IMG/VR virus record: IMGVR_UViG_3300044620_001883
Coordinates: 128,001-192,000 of that record
Reading direction: 5' to 3' (one strand)
DNA length: 64,000 bases
DNA from: a virus
Taxonomy: Duplodnaviria > Caudoviricetes
A program made the position numbers and the translations under genes. Position 1 is the stretch's first letter. Each line of letters starts with the position of its first letter. Positions 2,289 through 34,834 of the stretch are shown here, in pieces. A model generated the notes under the pieces. That model had not been told where the DNA came from. It did not search any database and saw only the letters and a list, made by a program, of their open reading frames with translations.

Positions 2289-2306
2289 AGCTATCACTCG
2301 TCGAGG

Positions 2307-2335
2307 TTGCAGGGGCGGGGGACTGTGGGTAGGTT
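2307..2335 (+). promoter_or_regulatory. sigma70-like promoter (near-leaderless)
   Basis: TTGCAG-N17-TAGGTT, ATG 8 nt downstream. Confidence 0.55.
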
Positions 2336-2343
2336 TTGGGCAT

Positions 2344-5049
2344 ATGTTGTCCCTGCTCGCCCCACCCATCGTCAAGTCCTCGAGTGCCCTCCCGGTTCTC
2401 GAACGGGCGGCAGGCAAGATCCAGGATGCCGTGGACCCTGCTCCGCTCGAGAAGGCCCCCGCGACGGCCCGTCCTGAATCCAAGAGGCACCGGGAGGCTT
2501 TGGTGGATGAAGCAAGGGTGCGGCACTACCAGGACCAACCTTTCAGTACATCTGCCATGCTAGGTGGTGGGCTCGGTTTGAGTGTGCCGTGGGTGCTGGC
2601 TGCCATCATGGCTCCCAAGATGTACCGGAATAATGCCGACATTGGTAGGCTGGCACAGCTCTCGGCAGCCGGTGGGCTAGTCGGGACCGGGACAGGTCTG
2701 GGTGCTGAAGCACTAGGACGCCTCTTGACCCGTGGGTTCGGTCCCAATTTCAAACCTTCGCAGTGGCACCGGGACCAGGATCCTCACCGCTGGAACAGTG
2801 CACTCCGGACTGCCCCCATCGCGGTGGCCACGCTGGGTGGTAAAGCACTGTCGACCATGTTTCGGGAGATGCACAAGGATGCCAGCAACGACCAGGATCT
2901 TCGGAGCCGTATCGCAGCTGCGTACAAGCAGGTCACAATCCCTGACCTGAAGGCCATCGAGCACGGTCAGTACCAGAAGGGTCACTTCTCCTGGAAGGGT
3001 CTCGGTATCACGATCGAGTCTGCCCCTGGTGCAGTGCGGCGTGGGGTCGATAAGGATGGGACGGAGTGGTCCGTGAAGCTCAAGAATGCCTACGGGTACA
3101 TCAAGGGCACCACCAGCGCAGAACCCGGTGACCAGATGGATGTCTTCATGGGTCCACATCCCGAGAGCGAGATCGTGTTTGTGGTGGACCAGAACAAGCA
3201 GAAGACCAAGACCTTCGATGAACACAAGTGCGTCGTAGGCTGCCGTACTGTTGCTGAAGCGAAGGAGCTGTACATCAAGAACTACTCGGAAGGCTGGACC
3301 GGCTTCCGGGACATCACACCCATGACGCTACCCCAGTTCAAGTCATGGCTAAAGAAAGGGGACATGACCAAGCCACTGGCCGGGCAGCAGTTCCAGGATT
3401 TCCACAAGCAGGCCACAAATTCGCTGGTCAACATTCTACCAAGCTCAGATATTTCCATCATGCACACTAGCCTCACACCCGCCCCCTGGACCAAGCAAGC
3501 CATCAATCTCAAGGGGGTCCTTCCTGCTCTCAAGGGCATGTTCAGCCGCACACCAGGTGCGGTCGGTGCGACTGAGGGGGCTACTGCAGCGCCGGCCGCG
3601 GAGAAGCTCCGAAGCTTCCTAGCTGGCGGAGGCAACCTGCGACCAGGGGAGTACGAGCGCGTTGCCCTGCAGCACCCGGAGCTCATGGCTGAGTTCCCTC
3701 GCATCCGTGATGCCGTGAATCTGGCTGACGTTCGGCGGATGATCGGCACTGGTCCTATTCCTGGCGCGTTTCAGGGGGGTGTTGGTAATCAGGTAGCACA
3801 GACGCTGATCGGTGGTGGAGCTGGTGCGGGGCTTGGTCTCGCTGAAAACAGTTTCACGGACATGGGACCGGACATGCAGAAGAACAACCTGATTGCCAAT
3901 ACGGCCTTAGGTCTGTTGGCAGGCAACCCAATCGCGCGGCAACGTATGCTCAAAAAGGTGTTCACGGATCCTGCTACTGGTCTCCGGAACATTGGGTACA
4001 ACCCGAAGGCCTTAATGGGTGCCAGTACAGGCCTCATCGGCAAGACATCCCTGCTGCTTGGTGGTGATAAACTGTTTGGTACTCTTGACAACCTGCGAGC
4101 CGGTACAGGCAAACTCACCAGCACCGCGACCAAGCTCGATTCCAAGATGGACAAGGCTGAGAACAGTATTGCCAAGAACTTCAAGGAGCCGTTCGAGAAG
4201 TTGGAGAATTCTTCCAAGGAGCTGGGCGGCAAGCTGATGGACTCAGGCTCTAAGTTGATTGCTGGAGGCCGCCCGTATGTTGGGGGCATTGGTGGTGCAT
4301 TCCTGGGCAATATGGTAGGCCAGTACTTCGAGGACGAGAAGCGGGTCTCTGCCGAGGAGGCCAAAAGACAGAAGCGCAATCGTATCCTGCTCACACTGCT
4401 CGGCGGCGCTGCAGGTGCAGGACTCGGATCGGCCGACCAGAACACTCTCCCGGATACGCTTCGCCGTCTCCAGGGTGGTTGGCAAACAGCAAAAGGTACG
4501 GCAGCAGATCTGTACAACAAGGTGACCAAGCAGGCCAATCTGGAGACTTCATTACCAGACGCTCTGAAACTGTTCGGCGTAAACTCCGAAGCCGCCACAC
4601 CAGATACTGTGGCGGCTCTCAAGGAACTTGCTGTACTTTCGCAAAGCTCAGATCCTAGAGCGGCTGTGCATGCAGCATGGGCTGTTCCCACAGTCGAACG
4701 TGCCGTTGCGATGCCGCTTGGCGGTGCCGCACTTGGTGGAGCCGCTGGTGGATTGATCCAGATGCTGCGCGGGCACGGTGTGCGCGATAAGAAACGTCGA
4801 CCTTCTGTTGGTGCTGGAGTTGGTTGGGGTGGGGTAGCAGGTGGGTTGCTTGGTGTCCTGGCTGCCGCCGACGCACCACGCCAGGGCTGGAATGCTTCCC
4901 CAATGGGGCGTGCCATTGGCACCGTGCCGCTATCAGATGGTTTGAGGACCTACTGGCGGATGCTGAGCGGTAACGGTGCCGACACCGCCATCGAAGATGC
5001 TTTGAACGCCGCTGCGATCAATAAATGGATACCGAAACTGGCGCCATGA
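2344..5049 (+). CDS. large putative virion internal/ejection protein with an inorganic pyrophosphatase-like (InPase) domain and Gly-zipper helices
   Basis: ITIESAPGAVRRG..W..K..YGYIKGT..GDQMDVFMG..VFVVDQ..FDEHK matches the InPase domain of polyvalent phage proteins; several GGxxGxxxG segments; three KQA motifs. Confidence 0.65.
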   Translation: MLSLLAPPIVKSSSALPVLERAAGKIQDAVDPAPLEKAPATARPESKRHREALVDEARVRHYQDQPFSTSAMLGGGLGLSVPWVLAAIMAPKMYRNNADIGRLAQLSAAGGLVGTGTGLGAEALGRLLTRGFGPNFKPSQWHRDQDPHRWNSALRTAPIAVATLGGKALSTMFREMHKDASNDQDLRSRIAAAYKQVTIPDLKAIEHGQYQKGHFSWKGLGITIESAPGAVRRGVDKDGTEWSVKLKNAYGYIKGTTSAEPGDQMDVFMGPHPESEIVFVVDQNKQKTKTFDEHKCVVGCRTVAEAKELYIKNYSEGWTGFRDITPMTLPQFKSWLKKGDMTKPLAGQQFQDFHKQATNSLVNILPSSDISIMHTSLTPAPWTKQAINLKGVLPALKGMFSRTPGAVGATEGATAAPAAEKLRSFLAGGGNLRPGEYERVALQHPELMAEFPRIRDAVNLADVRRMIGTGPIPGAFQGGVGNQVAQTLIGGGAGAGLGLAENSFTDMGPDMQKNNLIANTALGLLAGNPIARQRMLKKVFTDPATGLRNIGYNPKALMGASTGLIGKTSLLLGGDKLFGTLDNLRAGTGKLTSTATKLDSKMDKAENSIAKNFKEPFEKLENSSKELGGKLMDSGSKLIAGGRPYVGGIGGAFLGNMVGQYFEDEKRVSAEEAKRQKRNRILLTLLGGAAGAGLGSADQNTLPDTLRRLQGGWQTAKGTAADLYNKVTKQANLETSLPDALKLFGVNSEAATPDTVAALKELAVLSQSSDPRAAVHAAWAVPTVERAVAMPLGGAALGGAAGGLIQMLRGHGVRDKKRRPSVGAGVGWGGVAGGLLGVLAAADAPRQGWNASPMGRAIGTVPLSDGLRTYWRMLSGNGADTAIEDALNAAAINKWIPKLAP

Positions 5050-21142: not shown

Positions 21143-21247
21143 GCAGAAACACCCGCGACGAAGTGCTTGGCACTCCGTGGGACTATTTCGGGAGAATCCC
21201 TCCCACCGACGCTCTCCCGGTACATCAGGAGGGCAACCCATAAACAC

Positions 21248-22130: not shown

Positions 22131-22166
22131 CCACCCGTCGTCCTTCGGGGCGGCGGGTGGCTTTTC
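22131..22166 (+). terminator. rho-independent terminator with C(UUCG)G loop
   Basis: CCACCCGTCGTCC-TTCG-GGGCGGCGGGTGG followed by CTTTTC. Confidence 0.85.
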
Positions 22167-22222
22167 GTTAGCTATGACGTCGCTTGACCTGTACAGGCTT
22201 TCGTGGTCAAATGTGTGTTGTC

Positions 22223-22618
22223 ATGAAGTACATCACCACACTTATCGTCCTCATTGTCTCCGCGTTGTTCCTCAACAACTGCACTACCACCCAAAGGGAT
22301 GCGTCCAAAAAGTACGCCTCCCAAATCAGCCGGGAAGTGGCCAGGTCGGCCGGTATCGCCGCCGCCGCGGTCGCAACCAACCTGATTCAACTCAAGCTCA
22401 ATGAGGCAACAGCCAAGCTGAGCGAGCAACGTGCAACTCTTGGCCCCAAGAATCCCGGTAGTGTCGTCACATTGACCAAGCTTGGCTTCCAGGAGATTGC
22501 GGTCGTGGAGGCCGAGAGGCTCCTGCGGCGCGCCGAGGTTGAGCTGGCAAAGCTCAAAGATGTTGATGCCCTGCCTGCACCTGCTGAAGCTCTTGCTCCA
22601 GTCGTGGTTACACCCTGA
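22223..22618 (+). CDS. putative lipoprotein (spanin-like candidate)
   Basis: MKYITTLIVLIVSALFLNNC signal with Cys, followed by helical coiled coil. Confidence 0.55.
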   Translation: MKYITTLIVLIVSALFLNNCTTTQRDASKKYASQISREVARSAGIAAAAVATNLIQLKLNEATAKLSEQRATLGPKNPGSVVTLTKLGFQEIAVVEAERLLRRAEVELAKLKDVDALPAPAEALAPVVVTP

Positions 22619-28934: not shown

Positions 28935-29012
28935 AAATTTCCCTGCTGTTTCTAGTCACCTCCTCTGGGGGTGGCGCAGTGGGAACTAAACAAACATCGG
29001 AGCTAGAACCCT

Positions 29013-29180
29013 ATGAATGAAGAAGTAATCGATAAACTGAAAGAGGCCATAAAGGCCTGTGCTGAAGCCGCAGCAAAAACCGGCGTAACCTGTGTTGAGG
29101 CGCTGCAGTTCACACAAGCAGCCTTGAATGCTACAAACGCCATCATTGGCCTCATGAGCGCGGAGCGCCAGCTCAAGTAA
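29013..29180 (+). CDS. small helical hypothetical protein (55 aa, below the ORF-track cutoff)
   Basis: MNEEVIDKLKEAIKACAEAAAK...ALQFTQAALNATNAIIGL, read manually. Confidence 0.55.
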   Translation: MNEEVIDKLKEAIKACAEAAAKTGVTCVEALQFTQAALNATNAIIGLMSAERQLK

Positions 29181-29188
29181 ACCCCTGT

Positions 29189-29262
29189 GCCCGCTGCGCT
29201 GTCGCTCTCCATCGAAGCTTGGCTCATCGAAAGAGGAGCCTCGGGACTTCAGCGCGGTGGGC
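29189..29262 (+). other. structured intergenic RNA element
   Basis: 13-bp outer stem (29189-29201 with 29250-29262) enclosing GGCTC-ATC-GAAA-GAG-GAGCC, then CCTTTTCT. Confidence 0.5.
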
Positions 29263-29278
29263 CAACCTTTTCTAAACT

Positions 29279-29536
29279 ATGCCTGACAAAATAACACCCT
29301 TGAGAATAATCCAACCCACACCTCCAGCTGCCGAGGTCCCGGCAGAAGTCATTGCTACCTCGATCACCCAGATCGCGAAGGCCATGAAGGACCTGACTAG
29401 TACGCGGCTCGGCCGTAATGCGATCGTGACCCTGATCCACGCTGCCAGCAAGGTTCCCAAGCGTGACATCGTGGCCGTCATGGGCAGCCTCGAGAATCTG
29501 GAGCGTGACTGGCTGAAACCCAAACCCAAGGCGTGA
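29279..29536 (+). CDS. hypothetical protein (possible DNA-binding)
   Basis: 85 aa, basic helical protein. Confidence 0.6.
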   Translation: MPDKITPLRIIQPTPPAAEVPAEVIATSITQIAKAMKDLTSTRLGRNAIVTLIHAASKVPKRDIVAVMGSLENLERDWLKPKPKA

Positions 29537-29817
29537 ACGCAGATAACACAGATCGCATCTTGCAAGACCTCAAGCAAACCATCGACAAGTTACCACCGAC
29601 CGCAATTGGCGTTGTGCTGGAAACCTGGCGCGTGCGAATTGACGATATTCGAAAACAACTAAAGTTTACAGGCAGATCACTAACAGACGTAACGTGCCCA
29701 GCTGCGCGTGAGCTGATGACGCTGGAAATGGCCGTACGTCAAATCGAGGCGGCCTGTGCTGTTGAGCGCGGGGATGGACTCGATGCCATCCGTATCCTTT
29801 TGAACCCCACCCCATGA
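29533..29817 (+). CDS. hypothetical protein
   Basis: 94 aa, GTGA overlap. Confidence 0.55.
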   Translation: MNADNTDRILQDLKQTIDKLPPTAIGVVLETWRVRIDDIRKQLKFTGRSLTDVTCPAARELMTLEMAVRQIEAACAVERGDGLDAIRILLNPTP

Positions 29818-30443
29818 GCACCACCCGTCGCGAGAAAGCCCGACGACTCAAGAACGCAGAGGGTGTGATCATCTGCAGCTGTGGCTGTGGTCAGATTCCA
29901 AAGCCACCACGTCAGACTTGGTTCAGCCAGGCCTGCGTGGATGGTTGGCGGGAGAAGAATGATCCGGGGTACATCCGCCAGCAGATGCTGAAGCGCGACA
30001 AGGGGATCTGCGCTCTGTGTGGTGTCGACTGCGTCAAGATCCAGAAGACAGTACAGCGGCTGCAACACCTGCTGCGCTGCAGCCCTCCAGATCACGGTCA
30101 GCGCAAGTTCCGGGAAGGTCACAGTTACAACGGGCAGTTTCTGCGCAGCAAGTACGACAGGTGCCTGGCAATCTGGCAACGGTGGCGGCACAAGCGTATT
30201 ACAGCTGCCAGGAACCGACTGGAGCGTATCAGGGCTCAGGGTTGGAACCTGGACCGGAAGACACAATGGGATGCGGATCACATCCTACCCGTCATCGAGG
30301 GTGGGGGTCTGTGTGGTCTTGTCTCGATGCAGACACTGTGCGTACCTTGTCATAAGGAGAAAACCAAACAGCATGCAAAAGACCGGGCGCAAAGAAGGCG
30401 AGAGAGTAGTGGGTGTTTACCAGATCAAGTGCCTGGTAACTAG
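29814..30443 (+). CDS. HNH endonuclease-family protein
   Basis: RDKGICALCG...WDADHILPVIEGGG...TLCVPCH. Confidence 0.85.
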   Translation: MSTTRREKARRLKNAEGVIICSCGCGQIPKPPRQTWFSQACVDGWREKNDPGYIRQQMLKRDKGICALCGVDCVKIQKTVQRLQHLLRCSPPDHGQRKFREGHSYNGQFLRSKYDRCLAIWQRWRHKRITAARNRLERIRAQGWNLDRKTQWDADHILPVIEGGGLCGLVSMQTLCVPCHKEKTKQHAKDRAQRRRESSGCLPDQVPGN

Positions 30444-31182
30444 CCATGTCTATGTGGGCAGCTCTGTGCACTGCCTGCGGCGGTTTAAGTATCACAAGAC
30501 GCAGCTCCGAGGCGGTACGCACACCAACAGACACCTACAAGCGGCGTGGTGTAAGTACGGCGAAGCGCAGTTTGAGTTCATGATTATTAGACAGCTCACG
30601 GCTCCTTTGGGACCTGAGGTGTTGCTAACCTGTGAACGAGCCCTCTGTGTGAAGCTTAAAGCCCTTGATCCGTGCCACGGTTACAACCAACAGCAACCCG
30701 GTGCGGTGTACTGCCGTAGCACCGCTGAAGAGACCAAGCGCAAAATAGGCGACGCCAACCGAGGTAAGAAGAGAACACCAGAACAGGTTAAGCGCGCGCG
30801 TGATGCATTTTTACTGGCTACCGCGGGCAGGCCAGGTCCGAATAAAGGACGCAAGTTTGGACCCGATGTGCGACAGAAGATACGTCAAGCCCGTCTAGGC
30901 CGTCCGTCCTACACACGCAGTGCGGCGACGCTGCAAAAGCAGTCGTTAGTTTTGAAGAGCTTTTACACAACACCCAAGGGGCAGATTCTACGCGCCGCGC
31001 GCGGGAGGCCAGCGGAGCCGTGCACCAACTGTAGCTGTATCGTTAAGACACGCCGACGCGGTTTATGCGGAGCATGTAACGAGTACAAGAGGCGCACAGG
31101 GAACGCTCGACCTCCTGGAGGTTTTCCACAGGGTGGAGGCAGGCATGGGCGAAAAACCCTGGCAAAGCCGCACGCTTTGTAA
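30373..31182 (+). mobile_element. free-standing GIY-YIG homing endonuclease with NUMOD3-like repeats
   Basis: GVYQIKCLVTSHVYVGSS..RRFKYH..L..GTHTNRHLQAAWCKYG; TKRKIGDANRGKK and NKGRKFGPDVRQKI repeats. Confidence 0.88.
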
Positions 31183-31285
31183 CCCCTGCCACAAAAAGGT
31201 CACCAAGGAACTAGCAGCCCGGCGAGCTGAACACCGCAGGCAGGAGAAAAAGCAGTTGCAAACCCTGACCGTTTCGCCATCATGA
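31145..31285 (+). pseudogene. displaced second copy of the HNH C-terminus
   Basis: Encodes (MGEKPWQS)RTLCNPCHKKVTKELAARRAEHRRQ, 14/25 identical to HNH residues encoded at 30330-30404. Confidence 0.75.
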
Positions 31286-31289
31286 CTGT

Positions 31290-31422
31290 GCCGCGTGTCG
31301 CAACCGGTTTCCCCAGAGAAGAGATTCTGAAATAGCGGATTCGTCCTGCAACATCAGATCTTACCATCAGACCCCTTCTACAGGTCTACAGGTAATCTGG
31401 GAGACCGGCCTCGACACGCGGC
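31290..31422 (+). ncRNA. putative structured non-coding RNA (~133 nt, multi-way junction)
   Basis: 11-bp perfect terminal helix GCCGCGTGTCG/CGACACGCGGC, second helix CCGGTTTCCCCAGA/TCTGGGAGACCGG, two internal hairpins; upstream TTGCAA-N16-CATCAT. Confidence 0.65.
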
Positions 31423-31439
31423 TCTTTGCGTACATGGCG

Positions 31440-31468
31440 TTGACGTCCAGCCAGTGACCTCGTAATGT
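31440..31468 (+). promoter_or_regulatory. sigma70-like promoter (leaderless)
   Basis: TTGACG-N17-TAATGT, ATG 7 nt downstream. Confidence 0.65.
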
Positions 31469-31475
31469 CCAGATC

Positions 31476-31838
31476 ATGGACACATCCAAGTACCGCCCCC
31501 TTGCCTATCTGCTGGGCTCCAAGACAACTTATTCTGCCGCCGACGCTGTAGGCAGTCCGGCGAATCGGAACATGTACCGCCACCACACCTTCCAGCGCAT
31601 TGTGAAGGATGAAGGCGGCGGCAACCCTGCCGTTAAGATCCAGGCGCGGATCATCCCCGTCGAGGACGCTGTGGATGCCGCGGAGTGGTCCACCATTGCC
31701 ACACTCAACAACTCCACACCCATTGCCTTCTTCGGTCACACGCTCTTGCCGGCTGTCCGGGCTGTACGTGATGACGGCAGCACTGTGGAAATCAAGGTCT
31801 TGGTGTTCAGTGGCAATGACCGTGACGATGAAGGCTGA
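31476..31838 (+). CDS. hypothetical beta-rich protein
   Basis: 120 aa, directly upstream of the beta' C-terminal gene. Confidence 0.6.
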   Translation: MDTSKYRPLAYLLGSKTTYSAADAVGSPANRNMYRHHTFQRIVKDEGGGNPAVKIQARIIPVEDAVDAAEWSTIATLNNSTPIAFFGHTLLPAVRAVRDDGSTVEIKVLVFSGNDRDDEG

Positions 31839-31843
31839 TCCCT

Positions 31844-34834
31844 ATGCGCGTCAAAGCCATCCAGTATGCGGTCAATTCGGTGCTACCTCCAGAGCTGCGC
31901 GACTATCAACGCCCTCTGGACGGTAAAGGGATCGAGCGTCTGATGCACCAGGTGGCGGTAAGCTACCCGGACAAATATGCGGAGGTGCTCCGTCACATCG
32001 GTGACCTGGGACGCAACGCCGCGTACTGGCAAGGTGAGACCATGGGACTCGATGATCTGCGCGACGTCATCGACACGCCCGGCTATTTGCGCCAGATGGA
32101 CACGGAGGTCGACGCAGCCACACGAGGCCTCAAGGATCCGCAGGCGATCCGGGAAGCCCGGGAGGGTGTCTGGCATAAATGGGCGTCCAAGCTGGAGCGC
32201 GACACCATGACGGCCGCGCTGGTGAAGAACAACGCGATCGGTGAATCTGTGGCATCCGGAGCACGCGGCAAGCCTGTGCAGGCCCGCGCTATGCTTTCCA
32301 CGCCGGCGATCTTCGAAGACAGCCAGGGTCGCACCATCCCGCTCTTCGCCCGCAGTTCTTACTCCCAGGGTGTGTCTCCTGGTGCCTGGCTTGCTGGGAC
32401 CTACGGCGCCCGCAAGGCAGTCGTGAGTACAAAGGTCTCGACTGCCAAAGGTGGGTTCTTGGCGAAAATGCTCACACAGGTTGCTGCTCCTCTGATCGTG
32501 ACTGAGCCAGACTGCGGAACCACCAACGGCATCGATCTTTCCAAAGACGCGCCCGACCTGCGCAACCGCTTCCTGGCCGCCCCTGCCGGTGGGCTTGACG
32601 GTGGGTCTCTTCTGGACCGCAAGGGCATCGCGCAGATCAAAAACAAGTTCAAGGGCGACACCATCCTGGTGCGATCTGCTCTGACCTGCCAGGCCCCTCG
32701 TGGTGTTTGCGCCAAGTGTATCGGGGCAGACCCGCGCGGACAGCTCCACCGTGTTGGCTACGCCGCAGGGATCACAGCCTCGAACGCGCTCGGAGAACCT
32801 GCTTGTTTGCATGGTAGCACCCTGGTGCGCATGGCAGATGGAAGTGTCAGACCGATCACCGCTATCCGAGTTGGTGACATGGTGCTAGGCGCGGATATAC
32901 AAGGGGTGCTGCGTCCAACAAGGGTCATGAATACGTTCGTGAACGGTATGCGTCACTGCTTTAGAACGGTTGTGCGTAAGGGCTTCGGTGCCAAGTCTGA
33001 TCGTATCGAGTTAATTTCCACAGCAGAACATAAAGTTCTAAGCTTCAAAGGCAAACGTCACAAGAAGGCGTATCCAACTATCGCAAGCATAGAAATGCCA
33101 GCAGAAGTAAACCCCCAACACAGCGTGTACATGGCAGCGGGTTGCCCTGATTTCGTAGGCGTTGTCGAGCCGTGGGCCATGCTGCTCGGGGCACTTACAG
33201 GTGACGGTTGTTACACCGGAGGAAAAGGCTCTGATGGCAAAGGCATCGGTTTTTCCTGCTACGATCAGCTTCTCACTGAAGACATGCAGAGAGCGCTACA
33301 TGCACACGGATTGAAGCTGAGCGGCAGCGAAGCAAGCGAGTTTCGTGTAAACATGCAAGACCAATATAGCGCGTTCGAATACATCGATGGTAAATTAGTA
33401 CGTAACAAGCTGCGTGCGGTGCTTATCAAAGAAGGTATGTGGGGGCAGTACAGTGGTGAAAAAACACCTCCAAGAAACATTCAGAGGTGGGACAACGCAT
33501 CCGTAGCAGCTTACATCGGTGGGTTGCTGGCCACAGATGGGTGGATCACCACAACCGGAAGTGTTGCTGGGTTTAGCAGCAACTCCCAGCTGCTGCTGCA
33601 GACTGTCAAGGACCTGTGTGAGCTGCGTTTTGGTATCTACGGATCGCGCATAATCCCGAAGTACAAAAGAAAGAAAGGGACCCAACAGTTTTACGCACCA
33701 ACGTTTGAGTTCACGATCTGCGGCGCAGAGAACATGCGAAAGTTGTTCGCGCATATACCTGTGCCAGGTTGCAAACAAGCAAGGCTGCAAAAGAAAGCAC
33801 AGGAACCAACTAAAACACGCATGTGCGCGGGGCGTTTCACCGTGCTTGAGCAAGTGTACTACGGGTTTGAGATGACTTACGACATTGAGGTGGACAACGA
33901 CACCCACCTCTTTGCGCTCGCCAATGGTCTGGTTGTTTCAAACACACAGGCGGCCCTGCGGGAAAAGCACACATCAGGCGCAGCGTCTAAGAAGGCCTCG
34001 TACTCGGGGTTGGATTGGCTGCAGCGGTTCGTGCAGGTGCCAGACAGTTTCCCAGATCGCGCCCCCGTGGCTGAGCAAGATGGGACCGTGACGGTCATGG
34101 AGGCCCCGCAAGGTGGTCACTATGTACACATCGGAGATCAGGAGCATTACGTACCGGCCAACCTGGAAGTAACCGTCAAGACAGGCGAGCGTGTTGAAGC
34201 CGGGCAACCTCTGTCGGAAGGGGTCGTGCGCCCTGATGACGTGGTGCGGTTGCGTGGCGTTGGGGAAGGTCGCCGATACTACAGCGACCGCCTTGGGCAG
34301 ATGTTTGCCGACTCAGGCTTCCGCGCGGACCCGCGCAACGTCGAGCTGATTGCGCGTGCGGCGGTCGATCATGTGCAGATCGACGATCCTGAGGATCTGC
34401 CAGACGGTGTGCTCCCTGACGACACAGTACAGTTCGGGGAGTTCATGCGCAATTACGAGCCCGCCGAGGGATCCCAAATACGGGATATCAAGGAGGCCGC
34501 CGGCCAGTACCTACAGCAGCCCGCCCTCCACTACACACCCGGCACCAAACTCACAGGCAGCATGGTCGAGCGTCTAGGCAAGGCTGGCATCTCGAAGATC
34601 ATGACCAACGAGAAAGCGCCGCCTTTCCACCCCGCAATGGTGCGCCTTCAAACGTCCTCGTTTTCAAATCCGGATTGGCTGGCCAGCTTGTCGACCTCTT
34701 ACCTCGGCAAACAGCTCGCCACGGGAGCGGCGCGCGGGCAGGACACCAACATCGAACACAACATCCACTTTGCACCCCGGCTTGCTGTGGGTGTAGACTT
34801 TGGCAAGAACATCGAAACCACCGGAGAATTTTGA
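31844..34834 (+). CDS. rpoC: RNA polymerase beta' C-terminal fragment with intein
   Basis: SGARG, bridge helix YGARKAVVSTKVSTAKGGFL, DCGT, VRSALTC..GVCAKC, trigger loop ALGEPA/TQAALREKH, jaw domain. Confidence 0.92.
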   Translation: MRVKAIQYAVNSVLPPELRDYQRPLDGKGIERLMHQVAVSYPDKYAEVLRHIGDLGRNAAYWQGETMGLDDLRDVIDTPGYLRQMDTEVDAATRGLKDPQAIREAREGVWHKWASKLERDTMTAALVKNNAIGESVASGARGKPVQARAMLSTPAIFEDSQGRTIPLFARSSYSQGVSPGAWLAGTYGARKAVVSTKVSTAKGGFLAKMLTQVAAPLIVTEPDCGTTNGIDLSKDAPDLRNRFLAAPAGGLDGGSLLDRKGIAQIKNKFKGDTILVRSALTCQAPRGVCAKCIGADPRGQLHRVGYAAGITASNALGEPACLHGSTLVRMADGSVRPITAIRVGDMVLGADIQGVLRPTRVMNTFVNGMRHCFRTVVRKGFGAKSDRIELISTAEHKVLSFKGKRHKKAYPTIASIEMPAEVNPQHSVYMAAGCPDFVGVVEPWAMLLGALTGDGCYTGGKGSDGKGIGFSCYDQLLTEDMQRALHAHGLKLSGSEASEFRVNMQDQYSAFEYIDGKLVRNKLRAVLIKEGMWGQYSGEKTPPRNIQRWDNASVAAYIGGLLATDGWITTTGSVAGFSSNSQLLLQTVKDLCELRFGIYGSRIIPKYKRKKGTQQFYAPTFEFTICGAENMRKLFAHIPVPGCKQARLQKKAQEPTKTRMCAGRFTVLEQVYYGFEMTYDIEVDNDTHLFALANGLVVSNTQAALREKHTSGAASKKASYSGLDWLQRFVQVPDSFPDRAPVAEQDGTVTVMEAPQGGHYVHIGDQEHYVPANLEVTVKTGERVEAGQPLSEGVVRPDDVVRLRGVGEGRRYYSDRLGQMFADSGFRADPRNVELIARAAVDHVQIDDPEDLPDGVLPDDTVQFGEFMRNYEPAEGSQIRDIKEAAGQYLQQPALHYTPGTKLTGSMVERLGKAGISKIMTNEKAPPFHPAMVRLQTSSFSNPDWLASLSTSYLGKQLATGAARGQDTNIEHNIHFAPRLAVGVDFGKNIETTGEF
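32804..33943 (+). mobile_element. intein with LAGLIDADG homing endonuclease (380 aa)
   Basis: Starts CLHGSTLV, ends TYDIEVDNDTHLFALANGLVVSN followed by Thr; LGALTGDG and GLLATDGW blocks. Confidence 0.92.

Follow-up and report, generated by a model that had tools for sequence, protein, structure and literature searches.

Directly upstream of the RNA polymerase (RNAP) operon of an uncultured freshwater jumbo phage lies a 133-nt folded RNA structure in which a long two-part stalk carries two arms. The structure is real, and comparison with related phages indicates a plus-strand RNA under selection for its pairing. Our preferred reading, to which we give an even chance, treats the element as an elaborated terminator and insulator that ends the transcript of the HNH and GIY-YIG genes before it. 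A stable small RNA built on the same stalk is the principal competitor, and an independent RNA gene, a DNA-level element and the known structured RNAs of phages and bacteria fit the comparisons far less well.

The element and its surroundings

The window (the whole 64,000-nt stretch that was analysed) comprises bases 128001-192000 of a 200,255-bp IMG/VR virus record. DNA of this stretch is found in lake-water metagenomes among public sequencing runs, and none of the public runs listed with the sequence is an RNA run. The beta' part of the phage's multisubunit RNA polymerase shares less than 30% identity with that of any cultured phage.

The element occupies the boundary between a nuclease region and the RNAP operon (Table 1), and its plus strand is the coding strand of all the genes that neighbor it. 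Upstream, the GIY-YIG homing endonuclease gene arrived as an insert (approximately 30318-31186) that brings a diverged replacement 3' end for the HNH gene, and it is for this reason that the HNH open reading frame is whole; the displaced original 3' end survives as a short remnant, and P1 of the element begins 4 nt past the stop codon of that remnant. The HNH gene is uninterrupted in two of the relatives discussed below, L002 and L025. The intein of the beta' C-terminal gene varies in its own right: it is missing from the 616-aa homologue in L002 and present in the 996-aa homologue in L025, and many intein variants, from 613 to 1537 aa, occur among the beta' homologues of relatives.

Table 1. 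Features of the element and its neighborhood (window coordinates)
Feature	Position	Strand	Remarks
HNH gene	29814-30443	+	Open reading frame whole, 209 aa
GIY-YIG homing endonuclease gene	30373-31182	+	Sits in the HNH 3' region
46-aa ORF, original HNH 3' end left by the GIY-YIG insertion	31145-31285	+	Alignment places it at the 3' end of the 207-aa HNH gene of L002, which is uninterrupted
Putative promoter of the earlier note, TTGCAA-N16-CATCAT	31256-31283	+	Not supported
P1, 5' strand	31290-31300	+	Pairs with 31412-31422; 11 perfect bp, 9 of them G-C
P2, 5' strand	31304-31317	+	Pairs with 31396-31408; 13 bp, one bulged C
Arm P3	31322-31361	+	8-bp stem, 4x4 internal loop, hairpin of 4-5 bp with UUCG-containing loop
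Arm P4	31362-31394	+	4-bp stem, 3x3 internal loop, 5-bp hairpin, 9-nt loop CCUUCUACA
P2, 3' strand	31396-31408	+	RNAfold
P1, 3' strand (presumed terminator stem)	31412-31422	+	RNAfold; L025 comparison
U-rich tail and linker TCTTTGCGTACATGGCG, 17 nt	31423-31439	+	100% identical in L002
Sigma70-type promoter of the RNAP operon, TTGACG-N17-TAATGT	31440-31468	+	Hexamers conserved, spacer variable in L002, lake variant X6 and L025
120-aa gene, first of the RNAP operon	31476-31838	+	ATG 7 nt past the -10 box, no Shine-Dalgarno sequence
Beta' C-terminal gene, 996 aa, with Hint and LAGLIDADG intein	31844-34834	+	Next after the 120-aa gene

An earlier note, made from the letters of the window, had named the helices of this structure; each is where it was placed, and RNAfold yields the same three-way junction. 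The 11 bp of P1 and the 13 bp of P2, separated by a 3x3 loop, make a stalk spanning about 27 bp in all, directly 3' of which stands UCUUUGCGUAC; the -35 box follows 17 nt after P1. On the plus strand the minimum free energy is -63.8 kcal/mol (z -6.8), and none of 200 shuffled sequences was as stable. The corresponding values for the minus strand are -71.8 kcal/mol and z -6.9, and since this strand folds at least as well, folding alone does not assign the strand, which the comparative data do. Among approximately 10,000 140-nt windows across the genome, the exact element ranks about 15th by GC-corrected folding energy. A genome scan for two-part closing stalks returned 19 matches, of which the element was the best (11 + 10 uninterrupted bp); the others that were inspected, 3 of the 19 in total, are unrelated to it. 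Neither BLAST nor a covariance model built from the window and L002 (R1) found a second copy in the genome.

Several additional features suggested by the sequence were discarded. The middle pair of a pseudoknot between GAAG of the junction and a CUUC loop is broken and uncompensated in L002, an outer helix P0 is not conserved between the window and L002, and a 17-codon ORF starting from the ATG at 31281 is frame-shifted in L002.

Conservation and variation among relatives

The element occupies the corresponding position in three Logan contigs, L002, L003 and L004, none of which has the GIY-YIG gene; their 120-aa protein and beta' share 81% and 92% identity, respectively, with those of the window. 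The L002 copy is 93% identical to the window's, from which it differs by eight substitutions and one indel, as against 51% identity at the 4-fold degenerate sites of five flanking genes, and selection therefore acts on almost every base. Measured against this neutral rate, the conservation of the unpaired bases has P about 2.5e-8 and that of the 17-nt linker P about 1e-5. The stretch from 31287 to 31446 is the best conserved of the neighborhood, and the interior arms, with their loops and the junction, have accumulated 6 changes in 79 nt (about 92% identity) at a neutral divergence of about 49%.

What kinds of change has selection let through? In P2, a C-G pair has become U-A by substitution on both sides, and the bulged C has been deleted, which accounts for the indel. 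In P3, a G-C pair has become G.U and an A.C opposition at the tip has become G-C; in P4, an A-U pair has become G.U; and three of the eight substitutions fall in loops or the junction. Not one of the eight breaks a plus-strand pair, and the indel likewise keeps or improves pairing. When the same numbers of transitions and transversions were placed at random, the structure remained unbroken in 0.9% of trials (P about 0.009). From the window to L002, the energy of the plus strand goes from -62.5 to -65.7 kcal/mol and that of the minus strand from -70.3 to -65.0 kcal/mol, and the pattern of substitutions and energies thus points to an RNA read from the plus strand. The DNA contigs that align to the stretch contributed no new variants of the element.

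A search with the beta' N-terminus led to further lineages, among them L025 (82% beta' identity), in which the HNH gene is followed by a 206-nt gap. This gap contains a 144-nt element (L025:3434-3577; -63.1 kcal/mol; z -5.0 on the plus and -3.4 on the minus strand), with P1 beginning 4 nt past the HNH gene end listed in the gene table. Here P1 has 12 bp, P2 has about 12 bp of different sequence, and there are two arms, one of which (3-bp stem, 3x3 loop, 7-bp hairpin) is laid out as P4 is in the window. All 11 P1 pairs of the window are kept in L025, with four double compensatory changes and one wobble, and the outer stem of P3 shows one double change that comes from a weak alignment. Homology to the window extends over the outer part of P1 (GCCGC/GCGG), the tail UUCUUUGCGUAC and the promoter, and the tail portion common to both is TTCTTTGCGTAC; similarity of the interiors is not significant (p 0.31). 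A 9-nt hairpin loop at L025:3480-3488, CUUUCUAAA, is nearly identical to CCUUCUAAA in L002 and to the P4 loop of the window (31374-31382), and it belongs to the first arm in L025 and to the second in the window and L002. Folded alone, the interiors of the three lineages have z-scores of -2.5, -1.7 and -2.5 on the plus strand and -3.1, -1.1 and +0.2 on the minus strand, the last value being that of L025. The covariance model R1 missed the L025 element, and must therefore be regarded as too sequence-bound; it gave no matches in other loci.

Farther out, the same slot is filled differently. L028 (71% beta' identity) has a simple 12-bp hairpin with the U-tract CUUUUCUG there; the hairpin is followed by CUUUUCUGAAUA and then by TTGACG-N17-TATCCT, 5 nt before the ATG. 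In L029 (62%), the HNH stop codon is followed after 3 nt by TTGACC-N17-TATGCT and, 6 nt later, the ATG, and L031 has TTGCCA-N17-TAAGCT 8 nt before the ATG; both have the promoter only. L026, L005, L009 and L032 have no gap at the position. Apparent gaps in L009 and L005 were considered as element sites and proved to be coding sequence or unrelated hairpins. The branched element is thus found in the window, L002 and L025 and is absent from L026, L005, L009, L029, L031 and L032. Five lineages share the order of a stem 3' strand, a U-rich tail, TTGAC-N17-TAnnnT, 5-7 nt and the ATG, and the U-rich tails of L028 and L029 align with window positions 31423-31439. As judged from these lineages, the slot before the promoter is typically empty or holds a plain terminator, and the branched element appears to be confined to the clade with at least 82% beta' identity.

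BLAST against phage records gave no match to the element, and no relative came from IMG/VR, which was scanned with the 120-aa protein and the beta' N-terminus as well as with two conserved strings and two protein alignments; a single metagenome scan retrieved only a distant lineage without the element. The conserved stalk 22-mer has four matches in 185,579 prokaryotic species genomes, all weak by the covariance model, and the one that was inspected resembles a chance match in GC-rich sequence.

Promoters and boundary cassettes

The earlier note had also assigned the gene after the element a promoter of its own, and here the comparison bears it out: the hexamers of TTGACG-N17-TAATGT are fixed across lineages while the spacer between them varies, and equivalent promoters of the RNAP operon are present in L028, L029 and L031. 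The strict pattern TTGAC-N16-18-TAnnnT occurs in the 200-kb genome only three times, each time just upstream of a gene start. Because the ATG follows the -10 box so closely and lacks a Shine-Dalgarno sequence, the mRNA of the 120-aa gene looks leaderless, and the recurrence of the arrangement in several lineages implies that this leaderless type of promoter is widespread.

Sigma70-like promoters lying 5-10 nt before an ATG with no Shine-Dalgarno sequence are found at window 2303-2346, 22184-22226 and 31440-31478 as well as in L025, L028, L029 and L031, a pattern that suggests that leaderless mRNAs may head several transcription units. Ahead of the RNAP operon, this layout persists in lineages down to approximately 60% beta' identity.

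The other unit boundaries of the phage are built more simply: a hairpin, a U-tract, about 20 nt and a TTG -35 box, with the ATG 8-10 nt past the -10 box, and the terminators are plain hairpins of approximately 30-45 nt. One such cassette, hairpin-TTTCGTTAGCTAT-TTGACC at 22131-22192, is 100% identical over 62 nt in L023, which belongs to the same relative (51% identity at neutral sites). Given that a plain cassette is conserved at least as strongly, an RNA gene cannot be deduced from the high identity of the element as such. In L023 (6532-6593 and 7822-7831), a 378-aa gene is inserted exactly at the -35 box of this cassette, with CTTGACCTGT duplicated at both ends.

These cassettes recall the PeSLs of T4-type phages, composite cassettes of a terminator and an early promoter (Arbiol et al. 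2010, PMC2839356; Comeau et al. 2014, PMC4122927). As in PeSLs, the stem-loop of the element stands directly before a host-type promoter at a module boundary, is present in some relatives and absent from others, and has a sister cassette (22131-22192) that is fully conserved and marks the insertion or deletion of a gene. The stem-loops of PeSLs, however, are short, simple hairpins repeated many times per genome (PMC2839356, PMC4122927), whereas the element is a single-copy, branched structure of 133 nt, unrelated in sequence to the phage's TTAGCTAT cassettes and lacking that motif. The regulatory cassettes of these phages are thus ultra-conserved recombination points of a PeSL-like kind.

Two further observations concern the plain cassettes. 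At four plus-strand sites (genome 52916, 71121, 130287 [window 2287] and 150168 [window 22168]), a strong GC hairpin is followed by the 8-mer TTAGCTAT, which could be part of a termination signal or a site for a phage factor. A second conserved intergenic hairpin cassette, with approximately 90% identity, lies at window 21143-21235; in L023 it is split (4234-4322 and 4856-4905) by an extra 94-aa gene, a second case of insertion or deletion at a regulatory cassette.

Function of the element and alternative readings

Why should a branched structure of this size be maintained at a single boundary? The structure, its strand and position, the selection for its pairing, and the plain hairpin or empty slot of relatives are observed; from them we infer termination and promoter shielding. 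The HNH gene and the GIY-YIG gene inserted in it would be read into one transcript, whose 3' end would fold into the stalk with its two-arm insert, and the GC-rich closing helix with its UCUUU tail would stop RNA polymerase arriving from upstream. The element would in this way supply the terminator half of a boundary cassette whose partner half is the leaderless promoter. The RNAP-operon transcript must start at the ATG because its first gene has no ribosome-binding site, and stopping upstream polymerase would shield the TTGACG-N17-TAATGT promoter from occlusion. The long stalk might in addition protect the upstream mRNA from 3' exonucleases, and the two arms would be baggage or fine-tuning, with no separate trans-acting function.

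The location favors a terminator: the element begins 4 nt past a stop codon and directly precedes a promoter, and L028 has a plain hairpin and U-tract in this slot. The element has in common with intrinsic (Rho-independent) terminators a GC-rich helix and a place just past a stop codon, and the U-rich stretch directly after the helix is a candidate U-tract. It differs from them in having an 80-nt two-arm domain in the place of a loop and in the shortness of that tract (UCUUU), and its terminator activity is putative. The tail UCUUUGCG has 4 U in its first 8 nt, below the 5-of-8 rule for simple terminators; the phage's plain terminators have tails of the same sort, UUUCGUU and CUUUUCGU. Compared with those 30-45-nt hairpins, the 133-nt branched form exceeds what termination needs. 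The conservation of the arms, together with the two-arm layout and loop of L025, is a hint that the insert itself may have a function, which would argue against a pure terminator.

A stable small RNA would account for that hint: the stalk would be a terminator, an RNase III-type processing or stabilizing module, or both, and the insert of about 80 nt, coming from the 3' end of the HNH mRNA, would bind a protein or an RNA. We hold this to be possible, though clearly less probable than the terminator and insulator. The slow change of the arms relative to neutral divergence speaks for it, as do the negative plus-strand z-scores of the interior in all three lineages and the fact that the L025 interior, for all its different sequence, has two arms, one of the same layout, and a near-identical 9-nt loop. 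The stalk, two helices spanning about 27 bp with a 3x3 loop, has the shape of an RNase III-like substrate. It resembles the RNase III stalks of T7 early mRNA sites and rRNA operon stems in its helices of about 11-13 bp, its small internal loop and its structured insert; a near-continuous duplex of at least about 20 bp with a small internal loop, as in such stalks, is present in both the window and L025, and cleavage there is predicted on this model. The T7 sites differ in being simple hairpins between the genes of one transcript. Jumbo phages do have small RNAs derived from intergenic regions and UTRs: in 201phi2-1 and phiKZ they were found by ONT-cappable-seq with mapped 5' and 3' ends, and most derive from 5' UTRs (PMC11512511). 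The element is similarly short, structured, placed at a unit boundary and conserved in position among relatives, whereas it is known from sequence alone and has no sequence relation to those RNAs. Weighing against a small RNA are the plain cassette that is identical in the relative, which makes strong conservation normal for cassettes here, the lack of significant similarity between the window and L025 interiors, in which the shared loop sits in different arms, and a distribution of three lineages, the nearest others being without the element and no partner protein being evident.

The window and L025 share the outer helix and tail and differ in the interior. In a more novel reading, of about the same probability as the stable small RNA, the element would belong to an undescribed class of small RNAs in giant phages, composed of a stalk and an exchangeable payload. 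The conserved closing helix and U-rich tail would be the terminator and processing module; the two-arm payload, recognizable by a conserved C-Y-U-U-C-U-A-M-A loop, would be set free from a nuclease mRNA at its 3' end and would have a protein or an RNA as its target. A candidate target is the conserved GAAGG ribosome-binding site in front of the nearby downstream beta' gene, to which the 9-nt loop is complementary; the match may be due to chance, because any such loop is anti-Shine-Dalgarno-like.

An RNA gene independent of its neighbors, as envisaged by the earlier note, would be transcribed from its own promoter, TTGCAA-N16-CATCAT, starting at the 5' end of P1 and stopping at its own stalk. 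The spacing does set a start site at about 31290, and CATCATGACT is identical in L002, where it lies past that lineage's stop codon and the preceding 16 nt are only 50% identical. The L002 stop, however, arose by one TCG-to-TAG change only two codons ahead of the TGA that both share, and this shift is so recent that recent coding constraint can explain the identity of CATCATGACT in large part. As for the promoter itself, L025 reads TACTGC/CTGCTT there and does not conserve the -10-like box. CATCAT also agrees poorly with the five other -10 boxes of the phage (TAGGTT, TCAAAT, TAATGT, TAAGTT and TAAATT), having no more than A2 and T6 in common with them, and TTGCA is conserved but coding (Leu-Gln). 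Comparison of the window, L002 and L025 thus reveals no conserved dedicated promoter upstream of the element, and we consider an independent gene unlikely. What survives of the proposal of an independent noncoding RNA of unknown family is a selected plus-strand RNA that belongs to no catalogued family.

The better folding of the window's minus strand would fit a function of the DNA itself, which might extrude a cruciform, be recognized by a nuclease or be a MITE-like insertion with terminal inverted repeats of about 27 bp; size and inverted ends are like those of small MITEs, and homing endonuclease genes are adjacent. However, each plus-strand G.U pair gained by substitution in L002 corresponds to an A.C mismatch on the minus strand, and likewise in one of the two arms of a cruciform, and the L025 interior has no minus-strand structure signal (z +0.2). 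The element is single-copy in the phage, has no convincing copies among the 22-mer matches in prokaryotic genomes and shows no visible target-site duplication, and its 80-nt center makes cruciform extrusion improbable. A DNA-level role is accordingly very unlikely.

Known RNA families fare no better. Rfam gave no match at gathering thresholds over the whole window, nor at E up to 10 over 29000-32500, in agreement with the earlier placement of the RNA outside known families, and no tRNA or tmRNA was found. The same note had offered a 6S-like decoy of RNAP or a phi29-type packaging RNA as hypotheses, to which only general points lend themselves (paired ends, a three-way junction and the nearby RNAP genes). 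6S RNA forms a duplex about 180 nt long that opens into a large central bubble; the element has no 6S match at E up to 10 and no central bubble resembling an open promoter, its largest internal loop being 4x4. Packaging RNA of the phi29 type has two complementary loops for ring formation, whereas the loops UUCGU and CCUUCUACA are not complementary; there is no pRNA match, and the host of the element is a 200-kb jumbo phage, not a phi29-like podovirus. With the element also absent from most relatives that have the same RNAP genes, we regard either identity as extremely improbable. Two other families were considered and rejected. The bacterial Y RNA YrlA goes with a Ro/Rsr (TROVE) protein and has a tRNA-like domain, and the msr-msd RNA of retrons adjoins a reverse transcriptase; the phage lacks both proteins (no TROVE match in the phage, no RVT_1 match in the genome) and so fits neither reading. 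For the Y RNA, there is likewise no Rfam match, and the UUCG hairpin is without the 7-nt T-loop.

Intrinsic terminators and terminator-promoter cassettes are well known, and a selected, single-copy, branched stalk of 133-144 nt in that position is an unusual variant of them. If the element is only a terminator, as our preferred reading has it, then the boundary cassettes of phages can carry large branched stems under selection, a point that would be useful in annotating the intergenic regions of giant phages and that cautions against taking each stable fold for an RNA gene. If the insert has a function of its own, the element would be a new small RNA of a few related lineages among the uncultured freshwater jumbo phages, whose non-coding repertoire is poorly known. 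In either case, it is located where the phage's own RNA polymerase is switched on.
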